Source: Escherichia coli (GTDB lineage: Bacteria > Pseudomonadota > Gammaproteobacteria > Enterobacterales > Enterobacteriaceae). From it: DNA of 64,000 bases. The translations under genes and the position numbers were made by a program. Below are positions 40,211 through 56,705 of the stretch, piece by piece (the stretch's first letter is position 1; every line of letters starts with the position of its first letter). The notes under the pieces were generated by a model that searched no databases, was not told where the DNA came from, and saw nothing but the letters and a program-made list of their open reading frames with translations. The DNA is taken from the NCBI RefSeq assembly GCF_044324875.1, contig NZ_CP172185.1; one strand, 5' to 3'.

Positions 40211-40339
40211 GAAATTCCCCCTTTTTGCTGTTTGAAACCCAAAAAATCCGCCGCATTCTATTCATCTGAAGATAAAAAGCAATCGTTTTCGTGGGGAAAT
40301 ATATTTTTTATATGAATGAGTGCAAAAAGGTGGGGGAAA

Positions 40340-41275
40340 AATTATCCACGGTTCAGGCCTGTGGGCATGATAAGACGCGTCAGCGTCGCATCAGGCATCT
40401 GCGCACGGTGTCGGATGCGGCGCGAGCGCCTTATCTGACCTACGGTTCAGACCTGTAGGCATGATAAGAGGCACCAGCGTCGCATCAGGCATCTGCGCAC
40501 GGTGTCGGATGCGGCGCGAGCGCCTTATCCGACCTACGGTTCAGGCCTGTAGGCATGATAAGACGCGCCAGCGTCGTATCAGGCATCTGCGCACGGTGTC
40601 GGATGCGGCGCGAGCGCCTTATCCGACCTACGGTTCAGGCCTGTAGGCATGATAAGACGCACCAGCGTCGCATCAGGCATCTGCGCACGGTGTCGGATGC
40701 GGCGCGAGCGCCTTATCCGACCTACGGTTCAGACCTGTAGGCATGATAAGACGCGCCAGCGTCGCATCAGGCATCTGCGCATGGTGTCGGATGCGGCGCG
40801 AGCGCCTTATCCGACCTACGGTTCAGGCCTGTAGGCATGATAAGACGCACCAGCGTCGCATCAGGCATCGGCGCACGGTGTCGGATGCGGCGCGAGCGCC
40901 TTATCCGACCTACGGTTCAGGCCTGTAGGCATGATAAGACGCGCCAGCGTCGTATCAGGCATCTGCGCACGGTGTCGGATGCGGCGCGAGCGCCTTATCC
41001 GACCTACGGTTCAGACCTGTAGGCATGATAAGACGCGCCAGCGTCGCATCAGGCATCGGCGCACGGTGTCGGATGCGGCGCGAGCGCCTTATCCGACCTA
41101 CGGTTCAGGCCTGTAGGCATGATAAGACGCGTCAGCGTCGCATCAGGCATCGGCGCACGGTGTCGGATGCGGCGCGAGCGCCTTATCCGACCTACGGTTC
41201 AGGCCTGTAGGCATGATAAGACGCGTCAGCGTCGCATCAGGCATCGGCGCACGGTGTCGGATGCGCCACACGACG
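40340..41275. repeat. Tandem REP/BIME array, about 10 copies of a 94-bp unit
   Basis: Unit GCCTGTAGGCATGATAAGACGCGCCAGCGTCGCATCAGGCATCTGCGCACGGTGTCGGATGCGGCGCGAGCGCCTTATCCGACCTACGGTTCAG recurs with exact 94-bp period; ORF-track starts at 40461, 40555, … 41119 are 94 bp apart. Each unit holds two inverted REP palindromes. Confidence 0.9.
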
Positions 41276-41289
41276 CATCCGACAATACC

Positions 41290-43176
41290 TTACTCTTCCA
41301 TCGCCTGGCGGATCTGATCCAACGACGCAGGATCATCAATGGTCGTCAGATCCCCAGGATCGCGTCCTTCGCAAATCGCCTGGATCGTGCGGCGCAGCAT
41401 TTTTCCGGATCGCGTTTTCGGCAATTGCGAGACAAACCAGACGTGCGCCGGGCGGCCAAAGTTGCCAATCTGGCTGTCCACCAGCGCCATAATCGCCTTC
41501 TCTTGCGAGTGCGCCACCTCACGGTCTTCCAGACTGTCGCTCTCTTTCGGAATGACAAACGCCACCGCCACCTGCCCTTTCAGCGCATCTTTCACCCCAA
41601 CCACCGCCACTTCGGCAACGCCCGGATGACTGGAGATACTCTCTTCAATCTCGCGCGTCCCCAGCCGATGCCCGGCAACGTTAATCACATCGTCAGTGCG
41701 CCCGAGAATAAAGTGATAACCGTCAGCATCGCGGATACCCCAGTCAAAAGTGGCGTACACCGGACGGGAAAACAGCGACCAGTACGTCTTCACAAAGCGG
41801 TCGTCGTCGCCCCAAATGGTCTGAATACACCCCGGCGGCAATGGCCCTTCCACCACCAGCATCCCTTTCTCGTTGACGCCACACGGTTCGCCGGTGACTT
41901 CATTAAGCAACTGCACGTTATAGCCATACATCGGCACGCCGGGGCTACCCAGACGCGTCGGCCTGTCGTCCAGACCGCGAGCAATCGCCATAATCGGCCA
42001 GCCGGATTCGGTCTGCCAGTAATTGTCGATCACTGGCACATCCAGCGTATTGCTCACCCAACTGGCGGTCGGCTCGTCCAGCGGTTCTCCAGCCAGATAG
42101 AGCACTTCCAGCGACGAGAGATCGTGTTTGCGAATTTCAGCGGTAGGGAATTTTTTCAGCACGCGAATGGCGGTCGGCGCTGAGAACATCCGGCTAACCT
42201 GATATTTCTCGACGATTTTCCACCACACGCCGCAGTCCGGCCAGGTCGGTAATCCTTCGTAAACGATAGTCGCCATCCCCGCCAGCAGCGGCGCGTAGAC
42301 GATATACGAATGCCCCACCACCCAGCCGATATCCGAAGCACAAAAGAACACACCGCCCGCTTTGCCGCCAAAAATGGTGTCCATCGAGGTCGCCAGCGCC
42401 ACCGCATATCCGCCAACGTCACGCTGCACGCCTTTAGGTTTGCCGGTCGTGCCGGAGGTGTAGAGAATGCAGGAGGTTTCGTTGGATTCCAGCCACGCCA
42501 CCGGTACCCGCGCGCCGATGTGTTGATGGCGCAACGACGCGAAATCGACATCCCGCCCGCTGACGCGTGCCATTTTCGCCAGCCCGCGATCCACCAGCAA
42601 AACATGGCGTGGCTGGTGCTGCGCCTGACTTATCGCATCGTCGAGCAATTTTTTATAGGGAATGATTTTGCCACCGCGCGCTCCGGCATCAGCCGAGACA
42701 ATCAGCACCGGTTTAGCATCATCAATTCGCGCCGCCACGCTGTGCGAGGCAAATCCCCCAAACACCACCGAGTGAATAGCGCCAATGCGCGCGCAAGCCA
42801 GCAGAGTAATATGTGCTTCGGCAATCATCGGCATATACACCAGCACCCGATCGCCGCGCTGCACACCCAGCGAGCGCAGCATTGAGGCCACCGCATTCAC
42901 TTCGTCATGTAACTGGCGGAAGGTAAAGGTGCGCTCTTCTTCTGTTTCCGAAGAGACGGCAATCAGCGCCAGCGCCTCTGGCTGTTTCTCCAGCCAGCGG
43001 TCGATAGCGTTGTGACACAAGTTGGTTCGGCCTTCACAAAACCAACGGGCAAACGGCGGATTGCTGTGATCGAGCGTTTGCGTAAAGGGCGTCTGCCAGT
43101 CAATACGCCGGGCCTGCTCGGCCCAGAACTTCTCCGGTTCGTTAATCGAACGCTGATAAAATTCGCTAAAAGACAT
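41290..43176 (-). CDS. prpE: Propionyl-CoA synthetase
   Basis: 628 aa; AMP-binding signature YTSGTTGKPKG. Confidence 0.95.
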   Translation of the reverse strand: MSFSEFYQRSINEPEKFWAEQARRIDWQTPFTQTLDHSNPPFARWFCEGRTNLCHNAIDRWLEKQPEALALIAVSSETEEERTFTFRQLHDEVNAVASMLRSLGVQRGDRVLVYMPMIAEAHITLLACARIGAIHSVVFGGFASHSVAARIDDAKPVLIVSADAGARGGKIIPYKKLLDDAISQAQHQPRHVLLVDRGLAKMARVSGRDVDFASLRHQHIGARVPVAWLESNETSCILYTSGTTGKPKGVQRDVGGYAVALATSMDTIFGGKAGGVFFCASDIGWVVGHSYIVYAPLLAGMATIVYEGLPTWPDCGVWWKIVEKYQVSRMFSAPTAIRVLKKFPTAEIRKHDLSSLEVLYLAGEPLDEPTASWVSNTLDVPVIDNYWQTESGWPIMAIARGLDDRPTRLGSPGVPMYGYNVQLLNEVTGEPCGVNEKGMLVVEGPLPPGCIQTIWGDDDRFVKTYWSLFSRPVYATFDWGIRDADGYHFILGRTDDVINVAGHRLGTREIEESISSHPGVAEVAVVGVKDALKGQVAVAFVIPKESDSLEDREVAHSQEKAIMALVDSQIGNFGRPAHVWFVSQLPKTRSGKMLRRTIQAICEGRDPGDLTTIDDPASLDQIRQAMEE

Positions 43177-43215: not shown

Positions 43216-44667
43216 TTAAATGACGTACAGGTCGAGATACTCATTGACCGGCATCTGTTCCAGGCGAGCTCTGTCGAGAGAAACCTCCAGAATGCGCTGC
43301 TGTTGGCGAGTCGGGAACTGGCGCGCGAGATTGATTTTGAATTTATCGACCAGCTTCGGAATGCCATCCTGACGGCGGCGAGCATGACCAATTGGGTACT
43401 CCACCACCACTTCTTCAAATCGCGTACCGTCGGTGAACTCAAGGGTTATGGCATTGGCGATGGCACGTTTTTCCGGGTCGTGGTAGTCAGCGGTAAATGC
43501 CGGATCTTCAAAGCAATTGATCTTCTCGCGCAGGGCGTCGATGCGTTTATCTTGCGCAACGTTGTCCTCGTAATCTGCCGCCGTTAAGCGTCCGAACAGC
43601 AGCGGGATCGCCACCATGTACTGAATGCAGTGATCGCGGTCTGCCGGGTTATTGAGCGGTCCTTTTTTGTCGATGATGCGAATACAGGCTTCGTGGGTGC
43701 GAATGGTCACTTTTTCGATATCTGCCGCCGTTTTGCCTGCTGCCTGCATCTGTTCATAGAGCGTCATCGCTGCTTCAACTGCCGTCTGGGAGTGGAACTC
43801 CGCCGGGAAGGAGATTTTGAACAGCACATTTTCCATCACGTAAGAACCGTACGGGCGCTGGAAGCGGAACGACTCACCTTTGAAGGAGACGTCGTAGAAG
43901 CCCCACACAGGCGCAGTCAGGGCTGACGGGTAACCCATTTCGCCCGTTTTCGCCATCAGTGCCAGACGTACCGCGCGGGAAGTGGCATCGCCCGCCGCCC
44001 AGGATTTACGCGTGCCGGTGTTCGGCGCATGGCGATAGGTGCGCAGCGACTGACCGTCCACCCACGCCAGCGAAACGGCGTTGAGAATTTCCTCGCGGGT
44101 CAGGCCGAGCATTTCGGCGACCACGGCGGTGGAAGCCACTTTCACTAACAGAACGTGGTCGAGGCCGACGCGGTTAAAGGAGTTTTCCAGCGCGATGCAG
44201 CCCTGAATTTCATGGGCTTTGATCATTGCGGTCAGCACCTGTTTCATGGTCAACGGCGCTTTGCCGCTGGCGACCGCGTTGCGCGAAAGCCAGTCCGCCG
44301 TTGCCAGAATGCCGCCGAGGTTGTCGGAAGGATGGCCCCACTCCGCCGCCAGCCAGGTATCGTTGAAATCAAGCCAGCGGATCATCGCGCCAATGTTAAA
44401 TGCCGCCTGGACGGGGTCGAGCTGGAACTGAGTTCCGGGGACGCGCACGCCGTTAGGTACGACAGTGCCGGGGACAATTGGCCCCAGCAGTTTTTTACAG
44501 GCCGGGTATTCGAGAGCTTCAAGACCGCAGCCGAGAGTGTCGAGCAGGCAGTAATGTGCGGTGTCGTAGGCCACTTTAGAGCTAATTTCGTAGTTCATGA
44601 CGTAATCGACGATATCAACGATTTCACGATCAAATTCCGGGCGGATGTTGTTGATTTGAGCTGACAT
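43216..44667 (-). CDS. prpD: 2-methylcitrate dehydratase
   Basis: 483-aa ORF recognised as PrpD. Confidence 0.95.
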
Positions 44668-44700: not shown

Positions 44701-45870
44701 TTACTGGCGCTTATCCAGCGCGACAAACTGGCGGTCTTCCGGTCCAACATAATTGGCGGAAGGACGGATAATTTTGTTGTCCTGACGTTGTTCGATAATG
44801 TGCGCCGCCCAGCCGGTGACGCGGGCGATAACAAACAGTGGGGTGAACATCTCGGTGGGAACGCCCATCATGTTGTAGGAAACAGCGGAGAACCAGTCGA
44901 GATTGGGGAACATCTTTTTGCTCTCCCACATCACCGTTTCCAGGCGATCGGCGATGTTGTACATCTTCAGCGAACCGCCTTCCTGCGAGAGCTGCTTCGC
45001 CACGCGTTTGATCACCTGATGACGCGGGTCGGCGATGGTGTAAACCGGATGACCAAAACCAATGACCACTTCTCTGTTTTCCACGCGCTTGCGGATATCG
45101 GCTTCGGCTTCGTCCGGCGTTTCGTAGCGTTGTTGGATCTCCAGCGACACTTCATTCGCCCCGCCGTGTTTCGGCCCGCGCAGTGCGCCAATCGCGCCAA
45201 TAATCGCGGAATACATATCAGAGCCGGTGCCCGCAATCACCCGGCTGGTAAAGGTGGAGGCGTTAAACTCGTGTTCGGCGTACAGCACCAGCGAAATATG
45301 CATCGCCTTTTCCCAGCTTTGCGACGGCTTTTCGCCATGCAGCAGATGCAGGAAGTGACCGCCGATGGAGTCGTCATCGGTTTCTGGCTGGATGCGTTCG
45401 CCGTTGTGGCTGTAGTGATACCAGTAGAGAAGAATCGAGCTAAGCGACGCCAACAGTTTGTCGGCAATATCCCGCGCGCCAGAGACAGTGTGCCCTTCTT
45501 TTTCTGGCAGCGTGCAACCGAGTGCGGAAACGCCTGTGCGCATGACATCCATCGGGTGCGACGCCGCCGGTAAGGCTTCCAGCACGGTACGCACGTTAGC
45601 CGGTAAACCGCGCAGGGCTTTCAGTTTTGTTTTGTAAGCGGCGAGTTCGTCACGGGTCGGCAGTTTGCCGTGGATCAGCAGATGCGCCACTTCTTCAAAT
45701 TCGCAATGTTCCGCCAGATCAATAATATCGTAACCACGGTAATGCAAGTCATTGCCACTTTTACCCACGGTGCAGAGCGCCGTATTGCCCGCCGGAACGC
45801 CAGAAAGTGCCACAGATTTTTTCGGTTTAATGACATGGGTACTGTTTTGCAGGATCGTTGTGTCGCTCAT
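44701..45870 (-). CDS. prpC: 2-methylcitrate synthase
   Basis: 389 aa; citrate-synthase family. Confidence 0.95.
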
Positions 45871-45889
45871 ATTGTCCTCGTCATTGTTA

Positions 45890-46390
45890 TCATTTGTAGG
45901 GTCGAGATTGTTGTCGGATGCGACGCTATGCGTCTTATCCGACCTACAGTTCAGTTCACCCCGCAGGCCTGATAAGCCGCGTCAGCGTCGCATCAGGCAT
46001 CGGTTGTCGGATGCGACGCCATGCGTCTTATCCGACCTACAGTTCAGTTCACCCCGTAGGCCTGATAAGTCGCGTCAGCGGCGCATCAGGCATCGGTTGT
46101 CGGATGCGACGCCATACGTCTTATCCGACCTACAGTTCAGCACGCCCCGTAGGCCTGATAAGCCGCGTCAGCGGCGCATCAGGCATCGGTTGTCGGATGC
46201 GACGCTATGCGTCTTATCCGACCTACAGTTCAGTTCACCCCGTAGGCCTGATAAGCCGCGTCAGCGGCGCATCAGGCATCGGTTGTCGGATGCGACGCTA
46301 TGCGTCTTATCCGACCTACAGTTCAGTTCATCCCGTAGGCCTGATAAGCCGCGTCAGCGGCGCATCAGGCATCGGTTGTCGAATACAACC
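45890..46390. repeat. Tandem REP/BIME array, about 5 copies of a ~95-bp unit, between prpC and prpB
   Basis: Repeated GTCGGATGCGACGC…CTTATCCGACCTACAGTTCAG…GGCCTGATAAGCCGCGTCAGCG…CATCAGGCATCGGTT; ORF-track peptides repeat with about 32-aa period. Confidence 0.85.
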
Positions 46391-46402
46391 AACGGGCGTT
46401 TT

Positions 46403-47293
46403 TTATTTCGCCTGGCTACGGGCAAACAGGTCGTCGAGCTTCTCTTCGTACTGGTAATAGTTGATGCTTTCGTACAGTTCGTTGCGGGTCTGCATGGTGT
46501 CGATGACGCTTTTCTGCGTGCCTTCCTGACGCAGGACGTTGTAGACATGTTCGGCGGCGCGGTTCATGGCGCGAAACGCTGAAAGCGGGTACAGCGCCAT
46601 TGCAACATGGGCACTGCGTAATTCATCGGTAGTAAACAGCGGTGTTGCGCCAAATTCGGTAATGTTGGCGAGGATTGGCACCTGCACCGCATCGGCAAAC
46701 TGGCGGTACATAGCGAGTTCGGTAATCGCCTCCGGGAACAACATCTCGGCACCCGCTTCAACATAGGCCCGCGCACGCTCGATCGCCGCATCCAGCCCTT
46801 CAACCGCCAGCGCATCGGTGCGCGCCATGATCACAAAATCAGGATCGGTTTTCGCATCCACCGCCGCGCGGATCCGATCCACCATCTCCTCTTTCGAGAC
46901 GATCGCTTTATTCGGGCGATGGCCGCAGCGTTTCGCACCAACCTGATCTTCAATATGCAATCCCGCCGCACCGGCTTTAATCATCGATTTCACGGTGCGC
47001 GCAACGTTAAAAGCAGAAGAACCAAAACCGATATCCGCATCTACCAGCAGCGGCAGCGAGCAGACGTCGGTGATACGGCGAATGTCGGTCAGCACGTCAT
47101 CAAGGGTAGAAATACCGAGATCGGGCAGCCCCAGCGAACCTGCCGCCACGCCACCGCCGGAAAGATAAATCGCCTGATATCCGGCACGCTGCGCCAACAG
47201 CGCATGGTTAGCGTTGATGGTGCCAACAATCTGCAATGGATTTTCTTTAGTCAGTGCAGCGCGAAACGCTTTACCTGGAGAGTGTAGAGACAT
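46403..47293 (-). CDS. prpB: 2-methylisocitrate lyase
   Basis: 296 aa; PEP-mutase/isocitrate-lyase family. Confidence 0.95.
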
Positions 47294-47340
47294 AGCCCAT
47301 CCTTTGTTATCAACTTGTTATTTGCGTTAATAAAGACAAA

Positions 47341-47356
47341 GCAAGGGGTGTGCCAC
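47341..47356 (-). promoter_or_regulatory. Sigma-54 (-24/-12) promoter for prpBCDE
   Basis: Reverse strand reads G-TGGCAC-ACCCC-TTGC (GG and GC with canonical spacing), about 45 bp upstream of the prpB start, facing prpB. Confidence 0.8.
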
Positions 47357-47531
47357 AATTGCCTGAATAAAATTAAATGTTTTATTTCAATTTGTTAGAG
47401 ATAAAGTCATGAAGTAATCCGCAAATATGCGTTTCAGTTAACGTTTCAGGCAATGTTTCACCGCGTTTCATTGCAACAATTATGAAACAAGACTAAACCC
47501 AATATTCAGTTTCTTAACTTTGCGGTGCGCT

Positions 47532-49118
47532 ATGGCACATCCACCACGGCTGAATGACGACAAACCGGTTATCTGGACGGTATCGGTGACGCGCCTGTTC
47601 GAGCTGTTTCGCGATATCAGCCTCGAGTTTGATCATCTGGCGAACATTACCCCTATCCAGCTTGGCTTTGAAAAAGCGGTGACCTACATCCGCAAGAAAC
47701 TGGCAAGCGAACGCTGTGACGCCATCATCGCTGCTGGCTCTAACGGCGCATATCTTAAAAGCCGCCTGTCAGTGCCAGTTATTTTGATTAAACCGAGCGG
47801 CTACGATGTGTTGCAGGCACTGGCAAAAGCCGGAAAACTCACCTCTTCTATCGGCGTTGTCACTTATCAGGAAACCATTCCAGCGCTGGTGGCGTTTCAA
47901 AAAACCTTTAATTTGCGCCTCGACCAACGTAGCTACATTACAGAGGAAGACGCACGCGGGCAGATTAACGAGCTGAAAGCTAACGGCACCGAAGCGGTGG
48001 TCGGCGCAGGGCTGATTACCGATTTGGCAGAAGAAGCCGGAATGACCGGAATTTTTATCTATTCCGCCGCCACCGTGCGCCAGGCATTCAGCGATGCGCT
48101 GGATATGACGCGCATGTCGTTACGCCATAACACTCACGATGCCACCCGTAACGCCCTGCGTACTCGTTACGTGCTGGGCGATATGCTCGGTCAATCACCA
48201 CAGATGGAACAGGTACGGCAGACTATTTTGCTGTATGCCCGCTCCAGTGCAGCGGTGTTGATTGAAGGGGAAACGGGGACGGGCAAAGAGCTGGCGGCCC
48301 AGGCGATTCATCGGGAATATTTTGCCCGCCACGATGCGCGACAGGGCAAAAAGTCACATCCGTTTGTTGCCGTCAACTGCGGGGCGATTGCCGAATCGCT
48401 GCTGGAGGCAGAGCTGTTTGGCTATGAGGAAGGGGCGTTTACCGGCTCGCGACGCGGAGGTCGCGCCGGGCTGTTCGAAATCGCCCACGGTGGTACGCTG
48501 TTTCTGGATGAGATTGGCGAAATGCCGCTACCTTTGCAGACTCGCCTGTTACGGGTGCTGGAAGAAAAAGAGGTCACCCGCGTCGGCGGGCATCAGCCTG
48601 TTCCGGTGGATGTGCGAGTCATTAGCGCCACTCACTGCAATCTGGAAGAAGATATGCGGCAAGGGCAGTTTCGCCGTGATCTGTTTTATCGGCTGAGTAT
48701 TTTGCGTCTGCAATTGCCACCACTGCGCGAGCGGGTGACGGATATTCTGCCGCTGGCGGAAAGCTTTTTGAAAGTGTCTCTGGCGGCGCTCTCCGCCCCG
48801 TTTTCTGCCGCATTACGCCAGGGATTACAGGCAAGCGAAACCGTGCTGGTGCACTACGACTGGCCGGGCAATATTCGTGAACTGCGCAATATGATGGAGC
48901 GACTGGCGCTGTTTTTAAGTGTGGAACCGACGCCGGATTTAACGCCGCAATTTTTGCAGCTGCTACTGCCGGAACTGGCGCGCGAGTCGGCGAAAATTCC
49001 CGCCCCATCCTTGCTGACACCACTACAGGCACTGGAGAAATTTAATGGCGATAAAACAGCAGCGGCGAATTATTTAGGCATCAGCCGGACGACGTTCTGG
49101 CGGCGGCTGAAAAGCTGA
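47532..49118 (+). CDS. prpR: Sigma-54-dependent activator of the prp operon
   Basis: 528-aa frame from [15 protein letters not shown]…; AAA+ sigma54-interaction motif [12 protein letters not shown]-terminal HTH. Confidence 0.95.
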
Positions 49119-56494: not shown

Positions 56495-56705
56495 TGGGGT
56501 TATGACCAACGCCAGACTGCCTGATGCGCTACGCTTATCAGGCCTAGAATTCTCGTGCCATTCGTAGGCCGGATAAGGCGTTCACGCCGCATCCGGCAAT
56601 GGTGACAAATGCCTGATGCGCTACGCTTATCAGGCCTACAGATTCTCGCGCCACTCGTAGGCCGGATAAGGCGTTCACGCCGCATCCGGCAGAGACAACG
56701 CGCAC
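56495..56705. repeat. REP/BIME elements between yahI and yahG
   Basis: Two copies of CCTGATGCGCTACGCTTATCAGGCCTA…CGTAGGCCGGATAAGGCGTTCACGCCGCATCCGGCA. Confidence 0.85.

Follow-up and report, generated by a model that had tools for sequence, protein, structure and literature searches.

BIME-2 elements, a class described since the 1990s, are built of z2 and y REPs in inverse orientation and occur as tandem copies in which the linker is short, the palindromes have GTAG feet and the stems are mismatched (PMC3333891). Variation of their copy number between strains is a published trait of the class (PMC3333891). Works cited in PMC6061677 and PMC9023263 are credited there with having established REPs as barriers to 3' exonucleases and BIMEs as attenuators. 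The REPs between malE and malF, as a citing paper summarizes Newbury et al. (1987), shield the upstream mRNA against 3' exonucleases and so give rise to differential expression. Effects have been measured on REP325, a BIME-2 array between yjdM and yjdN in Escherichia coli K-12; when it was deleted, the upstream yjdM decreased about 3-fold, the downstream yjdN increased about 10-fold, and the yjdM/yjdN ratio went from 35 to 1 (bioRxiv 10.64898/2026.03.23.713779). REP325 stabilises yjdM and attenuates yjdN 8-10 fold, partly through Rho; bicyclomycin increased read-through for the full-length array only, and the REP325 RNA was seen as a ladder of species ending in hairpins (bioRxiv 10.64898/2026.03.23.713779). 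According to the same preprint, the effects of REPs vary widely and are context-dependent, and mRNA half-life is not generally increased (bioRxiv 10.64898/2026.03.23.713779). The original naRNA4 model, as outlined in PMC4550694, involves an HU-binding RNA and nucleoid condensation. Sankar Adhya is among the authors of the 2026 preprint (bioRxiv 10.64898/2026.03.23.713779).

The array analysed here, between prpB and prpC of E. coli, is already known. Its K-12 counterpart was catalogued as REP25 (NC_000913.3 349606-349970, tandem pair prpB/prpC) in the supplement of the REP325 preprint, in which the prpE-codB element is REP26 (bioRxiv 10.64898/2026.03.23.713779). The main text of that preprint does not discuss prp, REP25 being found in a supplementary table only, and our literature search for a prp-specific REP study returned a single match, a "prpB // prpC repeat" that broke 454 contigs. 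REP25 and the present array are one and the same element, with the same site, flanks and 93-bp z2 + y unit; they differ in that K-12 has 4 units in a 439-bp gap and the window (the whole 64,000-nt stretch of DNA analysed) has 5 units in a 532-bp gap, one unit more. A few unit-specific SNPs also distinguish the two, including a polymorphic pair in the inner stem of the z2 REP.

The array within the prp operon

The prp genes were named by NCBIfam equivalog models, and all scores were far over the cut-offs. The main features of the locus are as follows.

40348-41265: sibling array between prpE and codB (Tandem Repeats Finder)
41290-43176, minus strand: prpE, propionate-CoA ligase (NCBIfam)
43216-44667, minus strand: prpD, 2-methylcitrate dehydratase (NCBIfam)
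44701-45870, minus strand: prpC, 2-methylcitrate synthase, the downstream gene (NCBIfam NF009006, 720 bits vs cut-off 550)
45871-46402, minus strand: prpB-prpC intercistronic region, 532 bp (ORFs, NCBIfam, allele comparison)
45875-45879, minus strand: GAGGA, prpC's own Shine-Dalgarno sequence (sequence)
45910-46381, minus strand (prp mRNA sense): BIME-2 array by its sequence, 5.1 tandem 93-bp units with 10 REP palindromes (Tandem Repeats Finder, repeat search, sequence, Rfam)
45918-46457, plus strand: spurious 179-aa ORF of REP repeats, WP_001526095.1 in Ecol_316 (ORF list, PGAP)
46403-47293, minus strand: prpB, 2-methylisocitrate lyase, the upstream gene, stop TAA at 46403-46405 (NCBIfam NF008455, 560 bits vs cut-off 353)
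47341-47355, minus strand: sigma-54 -24/-12 promoter element TGGCACACCCCTTGC, upstream of prpB and facing prpR (exact match)
47520-49118, plus strand: prpR, divergent sigma-54 activator of the prp operon (NCBIfam)

Tandem Repeats Finder placed the array at 45910-46381 with a period of 93, 5.1 copies, 96% matches, no indels and a score of 874. In the second repeat search, a 201-nt reference recurred four times in register, in 93 bp steps and at 96-100% identity. Most of the 532-bp spacer is taken up by the array. The sequence-only reading had placed a REP/BIME array between prpB and prpC, which both repeat analyses and the NCBIfam gene calls bore out; its estimate of about 5 x 95 bp was right in copy number and wrong in period, and its span of 45890-46390 contained the array with about 10-20 bp too much on each side. 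It had also counted this array as the second in the window and put it inside a sigma54-driven prpBCDE operon, and both statements hold, the former through the sibling array between prpE and codB and the latter through the exact sigma-54 match and the named genes.

No sigma-70-like promoter and no intrinsic terminator were predicted on either strand of 45700-47600, and no REP hairpin was followed by a T run, indicating that prpCDE has no internal promoter and that no intrinsic terminator separates it from prpB. The array does not combine a GC-rich hairpin with a U run as an intrinsic (Rho-independent) terminator does. The tandem-gene arrangement of REP325-type elements was found at this locus, with one sigma-54 promoter and no internal promoter-like site. 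We infer that the array is co-transcribed within the prpBCDE mRNA from the sigma-54/PrpR promoter. The last array hairpin, the y REP of unit 5, is 34 nt from the prpC Shine-Dalgarno sequence. The prp operon is silent without propionate.

Judged by the sequence of its units, the array is a BIME-2 element of ten REP palindromes, in which z2 and inverted y REPs alternate over five 93-bp units, and it is a member of the chromosome-wide E. coli REP family. The traits of the class were all found: inverse alternation of z2 and y, tandem copies with a short (S) linker, the GTAG foot, an imperfect stem, and an extragenic site with strain-variable copy number. Read in mRNA sense, each unit runs from the z2 REP TGCCTGATGCGCCGCTGACGCGGCTTATCAGGCCTAC (arms TGCCTGATGCG..CTTATCAGGCCTAC) through the tail-to-tail linker GGGGTGAACTGAACT and the inverted y REP GTAGGTCGGATAAGACGCATAGCGTCGCATCCGACA (arms GTAGGTCGGATAAG..CATCCGACA) to the short linker ACCGA. 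GTAG/CTAC feet were present on 9 of the 10 REPs, the exception being the z2 REP of unit 5 with GCAG; the stem mismatches were an internal AA/GC in the y REP and a C/T in the z2 REP. The predicted hairpins, all on the minus strand, are listed from prpB towards prpC.

46370-46394, minus strand: flank hairpin CGUUGGUUGU-AUUCG-ACAACCGAUG (fold -11.7 kcal/mol, z = -3.2)
46339-46370, minus strand: z2 REP hairpin, unit 1, nearest prpB (sequence, -23.5 kcal/mol, unit parsing)
46285-46315, minus strand: y-type REP hairpin (inverted), unit 1 (sequence, -19.2 kcal/mol)
46246-46277, minus strand: z2 REP hairpin, unit 2 (93-bp register)
46192-46222, minus strand: y-type REP hairpin, unit 2 (93-bp register)
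46153-46184, minus strand: z2 REP hairpin, unit 3 (93-bp register)
46099-46129, minus strand: y-type REP hairpin, unit 3 (93-bp register)
46060-46091, minus strand: z2 REP hairpin, unit 4, with a C-A mismatch in the inner stem (unit parsing, pair counting)
46006-46036, minus strand: y-type REP hairpin, unit 4 (93-bp register)
45967-45998, minus strand: z2 REP hairpin, unit 5, nearest prpC, with an A-G inner-stem mismatch (sequence, unit parsing, pair counting)
45913-45943, minus strand: y-type REP hairpin, unit 5 (sequence)

The flank hairpin begins 8 nt past the prpB stop and shares base 46370 with the first z2 hairpin, so the two compete. The array RNA in mRNA sense folded with z = -12.5, none of 100 dinucleotide shuffles being as good, and the 44-bp spacer of the zero-unit allele folded at only -2.7 kcal/mol, compared with -23.5 and -19.2 kcal/mol for the hairpins of unit 1. 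Across 17 units from 7 strains or species, 96.8% of the pair cells were paired, compared with about 30-38% in slid controls. No covariation beyond sequence conservation was detected in these 17 units (285-483 of 500 shuffles, depending on the measure, matched the observed value), and a single pair, columns 13/24 in the z2 inner stem, showed a two-sided change; constraint at the RNA level and at the DNA level are therefore inseparable in this comparison.

Four matches to the Rfam model naRNA4 (RF02564), which was derived from REP325, were obtained on the minus strand with 61.8-67.4 bits against a gathering score of 59.5.

45966-46037, minus strand: naRNA4 match
46059-46130, minus strand: naRNA4 match
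46152-46223, minus strand: naRNA4 match
46245-46316, minus strand: naRNA4 match

Each match covers a y REP, the short linker and a z2 REP; the two edge copies of the array scored under the gathering threshold. The minus strand, that is, the sense of the prp mRNA, was the better-scoring orientation. REP325 units score 95-111 bits with this model on the yjdMN sense strand, and since RF02564 thus has its matches on the sense strand of prpBCDE as well as of yjdMN, the two arrays share their orientation relative to transcription. Both are BIME-2 elements of one Rfam family, with alternating y and z2 REPs between co-transcribed genes. They differ in that REP325 lies in another operon, has a 100-bp unit in six copies and scores above the 62-67 bits of the prp array. 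Its y-to-z2 linker is also longer (about 11-12 nt, vs about 9 nt here, ACAACCGAT), and its y REPs are canonical, GCCGGAT...ATCCGGC, in place of the GTCGGAT...ATCCGAC variant of the prp array, in which the C-to-T change is compensated by G-to-A and the stem is preserved. In addition, the effect of REP325 was measured, whereas that of the prp array is proposed by homology. The classical intercistronic stabilisers of the malE-malF type likewise place hairpins between genes of a single operon; they have one or two REPs, in contrast to the ten-hairpin tandem of strain-variable dosage at prp.

Copy number in E. coli and origin of the element

The locus was found in 5,220 of 5,426 complete E. coli genomes. 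In 3,133 of the 5,220 the array-containing query was covered to at least 80%, corresponding to at least one unit; in most of the remaining approximately 2,087 genomes (about 40%) the flanks alone matched, with no REP at the site. Since about 40% of the genomes have no REP here, the array cannot be required for propionate catabolism; it is dispensable and modulatory. Comparison of array length across strains, which the sequence-only reading had proposed, gave alleles of 0-5 units. Units were counted in two evenly spaced samples of 60 records each, one of them drawn with a flank-only query, so that its ranking was independent of the array. The pooled counts for the 120 records are given below with the gap between prpB and prpC.

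0 units: gap 44 bp, strain 19SZHZ663Rt; 42 records
1 unit: gap 159 bp (155 in O157:H7), strain GABEEC10 and O157:H7; 29 records
2 units: gap 253 bp, strain LAU-OXA; 1 record
3 units: gap 346 bp, strain 0H18; 13 records
4 units: gap 439 bp, K-12; 29 records
5 units: gap 532 bp, this window, E. coli 042 and Ecol_316; 4 records
more than 5 units: 0 records

The other 2 of the 120 rows came from one strain with a prpB-to-codB deletion. Five units made up the longest allele among the 120 sampled records, and a rare one (about 3%). Copy number was uniform among the sampled strains of a lineage, with a gap of 155 bp in all O157:H7 and of 439 bp in all K-12 derivatives. The window was identical to Ecol_316 over 45500-46800, and its prpE-codB array had one 94-bp unit more than that of Ecol_316; this sibling array, whose gap ranged from about 236 to 1079 bp, varied independently of the prpB-prpC array. 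BIMEs are substrates of the purified REP-associated transposase (TnpA-REP), which cuts and recombines them in vitro (PMC3333891). Array length at prp probably changes through gain and loss of units by recombination or slippage.

The element predates E. coli, since it is present in E. albertii (3.7 units) and in a cryptic-clade Escherichia (one unit, with flanks as in E. coli). Citrobacter, Kluyvera and the Escherichia alleles with an array share a conserved 9-bp segment, TAACAATGA, that is absent from the zero-unit allele, and the junction of the zero-unit allele does not correspond to a clean excision of the array in the allele comparison. The segment is thus ancestral and missing from the zero-unit allele, which argues, as far as the aligned alleles go, that the empty allele is the derived state. 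We had also considered the 9 bp as a duplication in the array-bearing alleles and rejected this, as Citrobacter, Kluyvera and E. albertii mark the segment as ancestral.

REPs of other sequence types were found at the prpB-prpC junction in Citrobacter and in Salmonella subspecies arizonae and diarizonae, one or two per locus, and Kluyvera had an apparent truncated REP. The TAG stop codon of prpB is the TAG of the REP's GTAG in Kluyvera, many Citrobacter loci and both Salmonella loci. These REPs share with the E. coli array the intercistronic position directly 3' of prpB; they differ from it in type, in having 1-2 palindromes that abut the stop codon, and in lacking a 93-bp tandem array. No REP was found at the junction, where the gaps were short, in Pseudocitrobacter, Shimwellia, Photorhabdus, Providencia and Morganella, nor in two betaproteobacteria (Noviherbaspirillum and Janthinobacterium), also with short gaps.

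Proposed effect on prp expression and rival explanations

The explanation that we favour, and rate as fairly probable by analogy, is that a BIME-2 array in the prpBCDE mRNA acts locally in cis and raises PrpB relative to PrpCDE. The cis effect is proposed because of the homology with REP325 and with the classical REP stabilisers. The prpBCDE mRNA would form ten stable hairpins in the spacer, of about -19 to -23 kcal/mol each, and these would block 3'-to-5' exonucleases, with the result that decay or termination products that contain prpB are retained. Translation of prpC would also be uncoupled from that of prpB by the long, structured and untranslated gap, which would reduce read-through into prpCDE as well. 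The net outcome would be a higher PrpB:PrpCDE ratio, and probably a larger increase with more units. Stabilisation of prpB mRNA, attenuated read-through into prpCDE, or both, are plausible by comparison with these systems, the most likely form of the effect being a modest, unit-number-dependent rise of prpB relative to prpCDE. The array RNA was unlike a rut site; with a C/G of 0.91 it is not C-rich, and it is highly structured, suggesting that the array is a poor Rho loading site. One REP25 fragment is listed in an in vitro Rho-binding table, in antisense and with a 4 nt overlap with the REP edge, and the same screen missed REP325 too (bioRxiv 10.64898/2026.03.23.713779).

The main rival is that the array is a neutral or selfish passenger in a permissive spacer, turned over by recombination or RAYT and of no meaningful effect on prp expression or fitness. 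The absence of an array from about 40% of genomes, the range of 0-5 units across E. coli, the independent variation of the prpE-codB sibling array and the lack of covariation beyond sequence identity in 17 units would all be expected of a passenger, and BIMEs are described as a major source of intergenic polymorphism (PMC3333891; Bachellier 1997, via a citing paper). Even so, we hold this to be rather unlikely, given that the same junction is REP-occupied in Escherichia, Citrobacter and Salmonella though the REP sequences differ, that copy number is uniform in the sampled strains of O157:H7 and of the K-12 derivatives, and that the local effects of the homologous REP325 are strong; an mRNA is also unlikely to be unaffected by ten hairpins of about -20 kcal/mol. 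A role of the array as DNA, in which gyrase would bind and cleave it strongly and supercoiling around prp or chromosome organisation would be affected independently of RNA, appears improbable. A subset of BIME-2 elements is enriched in gyrase cleavage sites, with a preference for y-type REPs, of which the prp array has five, and blocking transcription leaves the cleavage signal in place or increases it (PMC6379681). Such sites, for example sucC-sucB and tldD-yhdP, share with prp the BIME-2 architecture and gyrase-preferred y REPs; cleavage is confined to a subset of BIME-2 elements, however, and prpB and prpC are not named in those parts of the supplements that were available (PMC6379681). REP325, moreover, gave no REP-REP chromosomal contacts and no nucleoid compaction (bioRxiv 10.64898/2026.03.23.713779). 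At prp, gyrase cleavage is hypothetical, the y REPs are the variant with the compensated C-to-T / G-to-A change, and strains without an array are common.

An effect on prpB translation, by which the hairpin 8 nt past the prpB stop would stall terminating ribosomes and lower PrpB output, is in our view very unlikely. The flank hairpin at 46370-46394 (-11.7 kcal/mol, 8 nt after TAA) and the REPs that abut or supply the prpB stop in Citrobacter, Kluyvera and Salmonella would suit it; in 2015 Liang, Rudd and Deutscher reportedly found that REPs within 15 nt of stop codons stall terminating ribosomes and lower output. In E. coli, however, the first true REP begins 34 nt past the stop codon, and the weak flank hairpin competes with the first z2 hairpin. 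That naRNA4-like RNAs from the array act in trans, binding HU and condensing the nucleoid, is harder still to credit. Four units exceed the Rfam gathering score on the transcribed strand; their 62-67 bits are far under the 95-111 bits of the REP325 units, and the operon is silent in the absence of propionate. The proposal agrees with the original naRNA4 model as outlined in PMC4550694, but the preprint on REP325 found neither nucleoid compaction nor a stable HU-DNA-naRNA4 ternary complex, and REP-REP contacts that depend on HU were not found either (bioRxiv 10.64898/2026.03.23.713779). The probability that the array encodes the 179-aa PGAP protein on the antisense strand (45918-46457) is close to nil. 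The ORF exists and is annotated in Ecol_316 and E. coli 042, and because 93 bp equal 31 codons its frame stays open whatever the copy number. Against a gene stand the absence of a Pfam match at the curated cut-off, the absence of a promoter-like site in the scan of 45700-47600, the overlap with the 3' end of prpB, the absence of the ORF where units are zero or few, and a product that would be mere translated REP sequence; K-12 has no annotated gene here, and its locus tags skip b0332. The ORF was accordingly rejected as a gene for want of Pfam support, its absence from zero-unit alleles and its lack of annotation in K-12.

A further extension of the favoured cis effect, which we regard as quite doubtful, is that selection has maintained a REP between prpB and prpC in Escherichia, Citrobacter and Salmonella to set enzyme stoichiometry, the 0-5 units of E. 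coli serving as an evolvable dial. prpB is the first gene of the operon but encodes the last step of the pathway, and boosting it over prpC would limit toxic intermediates of the methylcitrate cycle. If this were true, propionate tolerance or flux would be expected to differ between lineages with 0, 1, 4 and 5 units.

The allelic series as a measure of REP dosage

The array belongs to a long-described class, and the mechanism proposed for it has already been demonstrated on the sister array REP325. For annotation it is a hazard, as it gives rise to a spurious call of a 179-aa ORF, and short-read assemblies have broken at it. Its interest lies in a natural allelic series of 0, 1, 2, 3, 4 and 5 units at one intra-operon site behind an inducible promoter, with which one could follow, without engineering, how mRNA stability, read-through and enzyme stoichiometry respond to the dose of REP hairpins. 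The 0-5 series and the repeated occurrence of REPs between prpB and prpC in three genera jointly make the prp operon a convenient test bed for REP dosage.

The array between prpE and codB

A second BIME-2 array lies downstream of prpE.
40348-41265 (gap 40211-41289), same orientation as the prpB-prpC array: BIME-2 array between prpE and codB, named REP26 in K-12

This array had a period of 94 bp and 9.8 copies, and ten of its units reached the gathering score of naRNA4 (the Rfam model built on REP325). The prpE-codB gap was 1079 bp in the window vs. only 329 bp in K-12; in other E. coli it was about 236, 326, 424, 893-900 or 985 bp. O157:H7 had a gap of about 893 bp, yet carried just one unit between prpB and prpC, indicating that the two arrays vary independently. 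In about 330 genomes the flanks of the gap were left unjoined, which could reflect longer arrays or insertions.

Strain Ecol_316 was 100% identical to the window across 45500-46800. At prpE-codB, the window held one extra 94-bp unit (gap of 1079 vs. 985 bp). Therefore, the window represents a different strain or assembly from Ecol_316, unless the prpE-codB array is mis-assembled or its length shifts very rapidly.

A deletion within the operon was observed in strain SCU-171 (NZ_CP054363.1, near 4184691-4184934): it starts inside prpB, takes away the 3' end of that gene and everything up to and including prpE, and leaves the truncated prpB joined to codB (cytosine permease). The end-point within prpB lies away from the BIME arrays.

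Annotated and mapped features touching REPs

Two further features of the window consist of REP sequences.
45918-46457, plus strand: 179-aa "hypothetical protein" WP_001526095.1 (PGAP annotation)
56518-56691: separate REP pair, period 93, 1.9 copies

WP_001526095.1 was made up of translated REP repeats throughout; its reading frame runs antisense to the prp operon and overlaps the 3' end of prpB. At the corresponding position of K-12, b0332 is missing from the locus-tag series. The protein is probably an annotation artefact propagating in RefSeq. The separate pair combined a short z1-type REP (TGCCTGATGCGCTACGCTTATCAGGCCTAC) with a canonical y REP, and resembles either a BIME-1 element or a BIME of atypical make-up.

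Rho bound in vitro to a fragment (K-12 349966-350088) that is antisense to the 5' region of prpC and shares 4 nt with REP25 (bioRxiv 10.64898/2026.03.23.713779, Table S16). This fragment corresponds to approximately 45795-45915 on the plus strand of the window.

Spacers with one unit or none, and the prpB stop codon

When the array-free E. coli allele (L003, 872-915) was compared with window 45871-45912, the 9-bp TAACAATGA was absent from the array-free allele. This sequence sits immediately upstream of the prpC ribosome-binding site, and Citrobacter, Kluyvera and E. albertii all retain it. The array-free allele also carried GAAAAAT, whereas array-bearing alleles had a single A. In the single unit of O157:H7, one GAACT direct repeat was gone from the tail-to-tail linker, changing GAACTGAACTG to GAACTG; this 155-bp allele was common to all seven O157:H7-type records sampled.

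In Kluyvera, several Citrobacter, and Salmonella arizonae and diarizonae (loci L010, L012, L013, L019, L020, L024, L026, L027 and L076), the TAG stop codon of prpB was itself the TAG of the conserved GTAG of a REP. The final few prpB codons varied among these groups, suggesting that the native 3' end of prpB was interrupted or replaced by a REP.
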